From a virus (taxonomy: Duplodnaviria; Heunggongvirae; Uroviricota; Caudoviricetes): DNA of 26,821 nt. Both the position numbers and the translations under genes were made by a program. This document shows, one piece after another, positions 16,505 through 17,524 of the stretch. Under the pieces are notes generated by a model. The model ran no database searches. It was not told the origin of the DNA and saw nothing but the letters and a program-made list of their open reading frames with translations. Every line of letters starts with the position of its first letter. Within the stretch, counting starts at the first letter, position 1. The stretch is taken from IMG/VR virus record IMGVR_UViG_2740892230_000038. One strand, written 5' to 3'.

Positions 16505-16828
16505 ATGGATGCACAAACACGCCGCCGCGAACGTCGCGCAGAGAAACAGGCTCAATGGAAAGCAGCAAATCCCCTGTTGGTTGGGGTAAGCGCAAAACCA
16601 GTTAACCGCCCTATTCTCTCGCTGAATCGCAAACCGAAATCACGAGTAGAAAGCGCACTAAATCCGATAGACCTTACGGTGCTGGCTGAATACCACGAAC
16701 AGATTGAAAGCAACCTGCAACGTATTGAGCGCAAGAATCAGCGCACATGGTACAGCAAGCATGGCGAACGCGGCATAACATGCAGAGGACGCCAGAAAAT
16801 TAAAGGTAAATCTATACCACTTATTTAG
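16505..16828 (+). CDS. N: Antitermination protein N
   Basis: [85 protein letters not shown]... matches recalled lambda N (arginine-rich motif). Confidence 0.9.
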
Positions 16829-17324
16829 AAAATGCAGATTTAGGGAACAGATAGGAGGCGTTACACCTATGGCATCTCATCCTATGGTTAGAAGGTGGTG
16901 CAAATCCTTCGTATTGAAGTATGGATTTCACAGAAGATTCATAGCATTGAGCGCAAAGATAGTGCATTGGCTGACCGGTATTTGCCGATTTTTTGAGACG
17001 ATAAACCACCGTAGCAACAGTAGGTGTATACATCTCATAGTTTTTCTTTTCCTCTTCCCACTTAGAGGCTCGATTTATCTTTTCTTCAAGCTCAATAATC
17101 TTGTCCTTAGAAATCATCAAAAGCTCATTAAGTGACATTTGCTGCTGTTGGGCATCCATGAGCTTATCGACAAGTTCGTATGTTTTTTCTTTTACTGAGT
17201 AGTCTATTTGCATTTTCTGGATTTCCTTTACTGCGCCAACAGCACTCATCAGAGCACCTCCGGCACCAGAAACTGCATCTGTAATCCTACTTATTATTCC
17301 TTTTTCATCAGACATATAAATCAC
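16821..17324 (-). CDS. Hypothetical coiled-coil / C-terminal zinc-ribbon protein, antisense to the pL operon
   Basis: 167-aa ORF (GTG at 17324, ATG at 17315 with upstream gagag SD); CxxC...CxxC pair (CAQCYES...CHRCNAS); AT-rich; 3' end overlaps last codons of N convergently. Confidence 0.55.
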
Positions 17325-17524
17325 TCTCTTACTGTAGGGGTAAGAGGATTTTACTATTTTTCTCGCTGTAGGGGTACACGAGAACCACCAAGCCTGATGT
17401 GGTTAAAAGACAGGCACAATCTTTACTACCGCAATCCACTATTTAAGGTGATATATGGAAGAAGAATTTGAAGAGTTCGAAGAGCATCCTCAGGATGTGA
17501 TGGAACAATACCAGGACTATCCGT

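Follow-up and report, generated by a model that had tools for sequence, protein, structure and literature searches.

What occupies the strand opposite the pL operon between N and ral is a question with more than one answer in lambdoid phages. In lambda, this interval holds the superinfection exclusion gene sieB. The part of a chromosomal lambdoid prophage analysed here (the window, i.e., the whole stretch of 26,821 nt) carries at the same position a gene for a different protein.

An antisense gene between N and ral

The pL operon is encoded on the + strand of the window, and the gene in question, which is called rip1 in the following, lies antisense to it, directly downstream of N and before ral (Table 1). 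The original prediction, made from the sequence alone, had described an AT-rich antisense ORF that ends convergently inside the last codons of N and is preceded by a likely SD sequence, and all of these features hold up. The stop codons of rip1 (TAA, 16821–16823) and N (TAG, 16826–16828) define a convergent overlap of 8 nt with the 3' end of N, and the GC content of rip1 is 0.39–0.41 vs 0.51–0.52 in N. As a stand-alone gene antisense to pL, rip1 has a placement that would permit transcription independent of the lytic operons.

Table 1. Features of the rip1 locus, with positions in the window
Feature	Position	Strand	Remarks
N antiterminator gene	16506..16828	+	ORF translation; convergent with rip1; annotated as N in related genomes
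rip1 CDS, 164 aa + stop	16821..17315	-	Orthologue of phage HK446 gp37 / Rip1
Putative SD AAGAGAG, purine-rich	17324..17330	-	8 nt 5' of ATG 17315; putative function
Terminator-like stem-loop TCTCTTACTGTAGGGGTAAGAGG then ATTTTACTAT	17325..17347	+	On the pL-sense strand; consensus scan and fold
Direct repeat, copy 1, CTGTAGGGGTA (TACCCCTACAG on the rip1 strand)	17332..17342		Loop and top of predicted hairpin 17326–17347
Putative -10 TAAAAT	17348..17353	-	Offset matches other alleles; promoter region common to sieB and rip1
Conserved upstream block	17359..17416	-	Common to lambda sieB, HK446 rip1, and HK620 hkaP; contains the 31-mer
Direct repeat, copy 2, CTGTAGGGGTA	17366..17376		Loop of predicted hairpin TTCTCG...CGAGAA, 17360–17384
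orf28 homologue	17456..17542	+	pL-operon gene on the other side of the slot
ral	17525..17725	+	pL-operon gene on the other side of the slot

The ORF can be read as a protein of 167 aa from a GTG (16821–17324, - strand) or of 164 aa from the in-frame ATG at 17315. The N-termini MSDEKGI or MSENKGI are shared by twenty homologues that are 44–92% identical to the window protein, HK446 gp37 is annotated from the same ATG, and the solved chain in the PDB comprises 164 aa, which identifies ATG 17315 as the real start. The GTG at 17324 falls within the SD-like AAGAGAG and is probably not used. The leader of rip1 is identical in HK446 and nearly so in hkaP of HK620.

The rip1 gene is located on one piece (13012–18235) of a discontinuous assembly. 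The window contains 21 runs of exactly 10 N (e.g., 7307–7316, 13002–13011, 18236–18245, and 18793–18802) and is therefore a scaffold in which gaps connect short contigs. The ORF at 17908–18408 crosses such a gap, with a duplicated DLNAYGVVCEFDW segment on either side, and ORFs of this kind may be assembly artefacts.

The one match of the window to Rfam at gathering score is the lambda cIII thermoregulator (RF01804; 18468–18526, + strand; 88.5 bits, E = 1.3e-20), as expected before cIII. The hairpin GCCCTGAAGAAGGGC at 16380–16394 (+ strand) is the boxB of nutL; a terminator called by the scan at the same positions on the - strand was taken as this hairpin and rejected as a terminator of rip1. 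Downstream of the gene for a cI-like repressor (14280–14993) and upstream of pL/N, two overlapping ORFs on the + strand (14990–15478, 162 aa; 15475–16077, 200 aa) occupy the slot of lambda rexA/rexB. Both are hypothetical in RefSeq and have no match in Pfam, PADLOC, or the PDB; in the product of the second ORF, a coiled coil is accompanied by a hydrophobic helix at the C-terminus. The pair is a candidate for lysogen-expressed genes that are co-transcribed with the repressor. A large serine recombinase of 508 aa with Resolvase, Recombinase, and Zn_ribbon_recom domains is encoded at 4518–6044 (- strand), and the window ends with an intD-like integrase ORF (25658–26821, + strand). A related prophage of Escherichia coli 2013C-3264, located at the tRNA-Arg gene by fimZ (the DLP12/argU site), has no annotated counterpart of the recombinase but IS3 elements in that part; with its IS3 insertions and pseudogenes, this prophage looks partly degraded.

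Identity, fold, and relatives of the product

A phmmer search against the PDB sequences matched the window protein to chain L of entry 9oox, “ring interacting pore 1 (Rip1)” (E = 1.4e-105), with a sole mismatch in the alignment over residues 3–164; the family profile also matched this chain (E = 6.4e-82). The entry was released on 2026-02-04 under the title [quoted passage not shown]. Window protein and HK446 gp37 (YP_007111990.1) are identical in 163 of 164 residues, and the lone substitution, Y96H, affects a column that is variable in the family alignment of 20 homologues. When the AF2 model of the window protein was used in a Foldseek search, 9oox was the best match (E = 1.7e-17, 99% identity) and no other was significant; the superposition on 9oox_M had a TM score of 0.85 on the target and an rmsd of 2.7 Å. 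These results identify the gene with high confidence (probability about 0.93) as an allele of rip1, the gene for an antiphage defence protein of prophages, with a product nearly identical to the HK446 protein.

The gene was already known as rip1 (described in 2026) and is hence not new. The original prediction had named clear homology to a known protein as an outcome that would speak against it; the homology to Rip1 removes the novelty of the gene and at the same time favours the proposed interpretation. Annotation resources do not yet reflect this identity. No Pfam or NCBIfam profile matched the window protein above the curated cut-offs (the Pfam match to Zn_ribbon_4 is weak, E = 0.091), and no PADLOC profile matched it significantly (best E = 0.012). 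The sole strong match in the profile libraries is to phrog_1244 of PHROGs, a family of “unknown function” (E = 4.6e-53), and RefSeq and phage records label the gene product “hypothetical protein”. An update of the annotations is due, as Pfam, NCBIfam, and PADLOC v2 miss Rip1 although it has been characterised both structurally and functionally.

The AF2 model consists of two helices (residues 7–34 and 39–90) followed by a beta/zinc-ribbon-like C-terminal domain (93–158). Its confidence is moderate (mean pLDDT 69), with values below 50 in the N-terminal 20 residues. The predicted fold matches the solved Rip1 chain: an amphipathic helix rich in Gly and Ala at the N-terminus is followed by a long helix and, at the C-terminus, by a beta domain with four cysteines. 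Model and Foldseek match together reproduce the architecture of Rip1, at low confidence in the N-terminal 20 residues. The four cysteines (121, 124, 148, and 151) are invariant in the 20 homologues. This agrees with the earlier description of a coiled-coil/zinc-ribbon protein; the two C-terminal CxxC pairs were recognised correctly, but their spacing is X23 (CxxC-X23-CxxC) and not X22.

The protein had also been predicted to possess no TM helix. Indeed, a scan with 19-residue Kyte-Doolittle windows detected no segment at TM level; the maximum of 1.28 falls in the Gly/Ala-rich amphipathic segment, of which residues 7–24 have a hydrophobic moment of 0.42 and a mean hydrophobicity of 0.34. The absence of a TM helix does not imply that the protein is inactive at membranes, because Rip1 reportedly forms its pore with the N-terminal amphipathic helix.

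Relatives of the protein are widespread among phages and prophages. Searches with tblastn detected homologues with about 99% identity in HK446, ev099, and vB_EcoP-720R6, where the gene adjoins N every time, and with 53% identity in three myoviruses of E. coli, where it is located near a repressor gene on the strand opposite the adjacent upstream genes. Homologues with about 30% identity are encoded by the Mu-like Pseudomonas phages D3112 (orf25), DMS3 (DMS3-25), JBD30, and MP38, and those with about 27% identity by HK620 (hkaP), HK629, and HK630. In prophages of Pantoea and Serratia, the gene is convergent with a called N gene and antisense to the leftward early genes; in an Edwardsiella prophage, it lies in the same early-left region, where no N gene is called. 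A profile search of 1.84 billion representative sequences recovered 2,962 relatives at E ≤ 0.001 and 1,387 at E ≤ 1e-10. The gene and its upstream region (at least 80% coverage) are present in about 96 of 5,426 complete genomes of E. coli.

A slot shared with sieB

The DNA of the window matches that of lambda through N to position 16828 and again from position 17331, and the lambda sieB CDS fills the gap. The N genes share 97% DNA identity, and from 17331 onwards the window is 97.9% identical to lambda. A BLASTP comparison of Rip1 with lambda SieB detected no similarity (E = 9.8), which substantiates the earlier statement that the protein is unlike SieB, although its gene occupies the sieB slot exactly. 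The block upstream of the gene is nearly invariant in an alignment of lambda, HK446, HK620, and the window. It includes a 31-mer, GGTGGTTCTCGTGTACCCCTACAGCGAGAAA, that spans positions 17389 to 17359; at least 120 IMG/VR contigs contain exact copies of it.

A survey of the ORF that comes first after the 31-mer covered 126 sequences: the window, 120 loci from IMG/VR, and five loci with annotation. Ten of them were truncated or had no ORF. Among the 115 loci with a scorable downstream ORF, 89 encode a member of the SieB family (73–195 aa, including the P22 type of 192–193 aa) and 26 a member of the Rip1 family (including the hkaP subtype); there was no other cargo. In an all-against-all BLASTP comparison, the cargos of the SieB family and the Rip1 family form two unconnected clusters. 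Hence, lambdoid phages carry either rip1 or sieB as the cargo behind a common, conserved upstream block, and the slot between N and ral is a two-state defence locus. This alternation is the sole observation that goes beyond the accessible literature on Rip1. In a few IMG/VR contigs, the 31-mer and a rip1-type -10 are followed by a GC-rich hairpin, CACCCCCTTATTTTGTCAGGGGGAT, and no cargo ORF; here the slot seems to be empty or to have suffered a deletion.

The block and its flank contain a putative promoter. Five nucleotides past the 31-mer, the alleles carry the hexamer TAAAAT (rip1 and hkaP), TAAACT (lambda sieB), or TATAAT, which suggests that the hexamer at 17353–17348 may represent the -10 element. 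The corresponding -35 region is poor (TACCCC), and a simple scan for the sigma-70 consensus did not call this promoter but just a weak site inside the CDS, with fewer sites than in shuffled sequences.

The block and its flank also contain two direct repeats, as originally predicted, of which the first had been placed correctly and the second at 17367–17377 instead of its actual position (Table 1). The motif CTGTAGGGGTA occurs exactly twice in the window; shuffled sequences have a mean of 0.16 matches, and one in 100 reaches two. The first copy lies near the putative transcription start, and the second overlies the putative -35 region. Both copies of CCCCTACAG are kept in all alleles of sieB, rip1, and hkaP that were examined, whereas the sequence between and after them diverges; as part of a block that is common to the sieB alleles, the repeats are not specific to rip1. 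A scan of genome contigs for the twin repeat (CCCCTACAGN{20,30}CCCCTACAG) yielded only unrelated repeats among the matches listed. The hairpins predicted around the two copies are marginally more stable than those of shuffled sequences (z = -1.5 and -2.3). Read on the pL-sense strand, the first hairpin precedes a stretch rich in T and scores like a terminator; the stems around the second repeat are weak in other alleles. Searches of Rfam at both thresholds detected no family in or near rip1, except for a chance snoRNA-like match (E = 0.17).

The position and conservation of the gene bear on its alternative interpretations. The least probable of these is that the minus-strand frame is open by chance and that the coding sequences are two + strand ORFs of the pL operon (16869–17135 and 17208–17471). 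These ORFs do exist, and every homologue retains some 100 codons of open antisense frame, even HK620 hkaP at 28% amino acid identity, but a long open frame facing a real gene is a frequent shadow. Comparison of the orthologues shows an excess of substitutions at third codon positions of the minus frame, with differences at codon positions 1/2/3 of 14/7/38 (Edwardsiella), 53/39/86 (Pantoea), and 61/41/96 (Serratia). Together with the four invariant cysteines, this excess points to selection on the minus frame, whose product has the 2,962 representative relatives mentioned above, a PHROG family, and a solved structure. The original prediction had dismissed the + strand ORFs as non-coding shadows and had staked its reading on conservation of the minus-strand ORF in related prophages; the orthologues of Pantoea, Serratia, and Edwardsiella bear out both points. 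The comparisons show that rip1 codes for a protein of 164 aa and is conserved under selection. Hardly more credible is a divergent member of the SieB family of membrane proteins, i.e., a superinfection exclusion gene of the type found at this slot in lambda and P22. Position, orientation, and the conserved upstream block are as in lambda sieB, and one member of the Rip1 family, HkaP of HK620, is annotated on positional grounds as “putative superinfection exclusion protein”. However, the location of rip1 behind the upstream region of sieB, antisense and between N and ral, reflects a shared slot and is not evidence of homology to SieB. Membership in the SieB family is refuted by the unrelated sequence, the separate cargo clusters, the absence of a hydrophobic TM segment, and the near-identity to another, structurally characterised protein.

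It is also improbable, if slightly less so, that the gene encodes a Rip1 homologue that is silent in this prophage or has a different role, for example as a nucleic-acid-binding regulator with a zinc ribbon. Such a reading would accommodate the putative nature of the promoter and the weak match to Zn_ribbon_4, as CxxC...CxxC ribbons often bind nucleic acids, and the IS3 insertions and pseudogenes in the related prophage of E. coli 2013C-3264 indicate that some carriers look defective. Yet functional defence genes are common in defective prophages, and many complete E. coli genomes carry the CDS and its upstream block intact and with 100% identity. Moreover, the product is identical in all but one residue to a protein that has been shown to bind the rings of small terminases.

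Proposed mode of action and comparison with known systems

The function of Rip1 is the subject of a study by Patel, McCarthy, Taylor et al. (Nature 651:1060, 2026), which a review summarises (PMC13434031). According to section 5 of this review, Rip1 is a single-protein antiphage defence that is carried by prophages and is not toxic on its own. [quoted passage not shown] Twelve monomers of Rip1 surround the 11-mer ring of the small terminase; the C-terminal half contacts the ring, and the N-terminal amphipathic helix makes the pore. Liposomes lose dye through Rip1 pores, and in infected cells the integrity of the envelope is lost prematurely (PMC13434031). The accounts of Rip1 in a meeting report (PMC12908700) and in PMC13601566 concur with that of the review.

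By analogy, rip1 of the window would be transcribed from the promoter region that it has in common with sieB, with TAAAAT at 17353–17348 as the likely -10 element, and translated from ATG 17315. The protein would be made in the lysogen and remain harmless without a trigger. Late in a superinfection, when the small terminase (in coliphages) or the portal (in Pseudomonas phages) of the invader assembles as a ring, 12 Rip1 molecules would bind around it with their C-terminal halves and then form a pore in the membrane with their N-terminal amphipathic helices. The envelope would then fail, and the cell would lyse before the progeny has matured, resulting in an abortive defence at the population level. 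Ring binding and formation of a 12-mer pore are presumed for the allele of the window; no terminase or portal gene is present within the window itself. The original prediction of a lysogen-expressed gene that interferes with superinfecting phages and is unrelated to SieB appears to be essentially correct, judging from the identity of 163 of 164 residues with the Rip1 of HK446, a published defence.

The two-state slot raises the question of how prophages with rip1 escape self-killing upon induction. A tentative and rather doubtful answer is that the upstream block, with two hairpins presenting CCCCUACAG (CUGUAGGGG on the pL-sense strand), is a common regulatory module that acts beyond its promoter, confers self-immunity on induction, and serves as an anchor for recombination. 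Such a module might, for example, terminate or stabilise an antisense RNA, or its target might be read-through transcripts from pL under N antitermination, and the resident defence gene would thereby be shut off on induction of its own prophage. If so, self-immunity would be possible without a dedicated anti-defence protein, and the same block would be the anchor for the swapping of defence cargos.

The system that shares the slot with rip1 is SieB of lambda and P22. Slot, orientation, and the upstream block with both copies of CCCCTACAG are the same as for rip1, but SieB is a hydrophobic membrane protein whose sequence is unrelated to that of Rip1. SieB reportedly is a lysogen-expressed abortive defence against superinfecting phages; the promoter of P22 sieB is said to have been mapped experimentally by Ranade and Poteete in 1993, and that of lambda to have been deduced by homology. 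For self-immunity, sieB of P22 has an internal product, Esc, and an antisense RNA, sas (PMC7067206). Unlike in P22 sieB, no equivalent of Esc or sas was identified for rip1.

Among other defences, Tab (tail assembly blocker) of Pseudomonas phage JBD26 was suspected because the slot of the Rip1 homologues in the Mu-like Pseudomonas phages is the Tab slot of JBD26. Tab resembles Rip1 in being a constitutive prophage defence with its own promoter that is directed at virion morphogenesis. By its description, it is set apart as a different protein of 83 residues that blocks tail assembly via the tape measure protein and has a dedicated anti-Tab gene. TerI of Listeria phages also targets the terminase but is an unrelated system.

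The homologues of the Mu-like Pseudomonas phages belong to the same family as rip1 of the window (30% identity, E = 7e-26), with helices and the four cysteines aligned, and are likewise encoded by a stand-alone gene antisense inside a lytic operon. Their position is that given for rip1 of Pseudomonas in the review, where, however, the reported trigger is the portal and not the small terminase (PMC13434031). HkaP of HK620 (also present in HK629 and HK630) is a distant member of the family (hhalign probability 98.4%, E = 6.7e-15) that shares the length of 164 aa, the slot, and an almost identical leader with Rip1 but only about 25–28% of its residues; a literature search on hkaP gave only irrelevant matches, with no functional test among them. 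The most similar of these systems is rip1 of HK446, which agrees with the gene of the window in the length of its product, its convergent position relative to N, its leader, and its upstream block, with 99.4% DNA identity over positions 16479–17416. Beyond 17416, HK446 has a different segment with an anti-restriction gene, whereas the window continues with orf28 and ral of the lambda type. The host elements differ as well: HK446 is an HK97-like phage, and the window belongs to a chromosomal lambdoid prophage.
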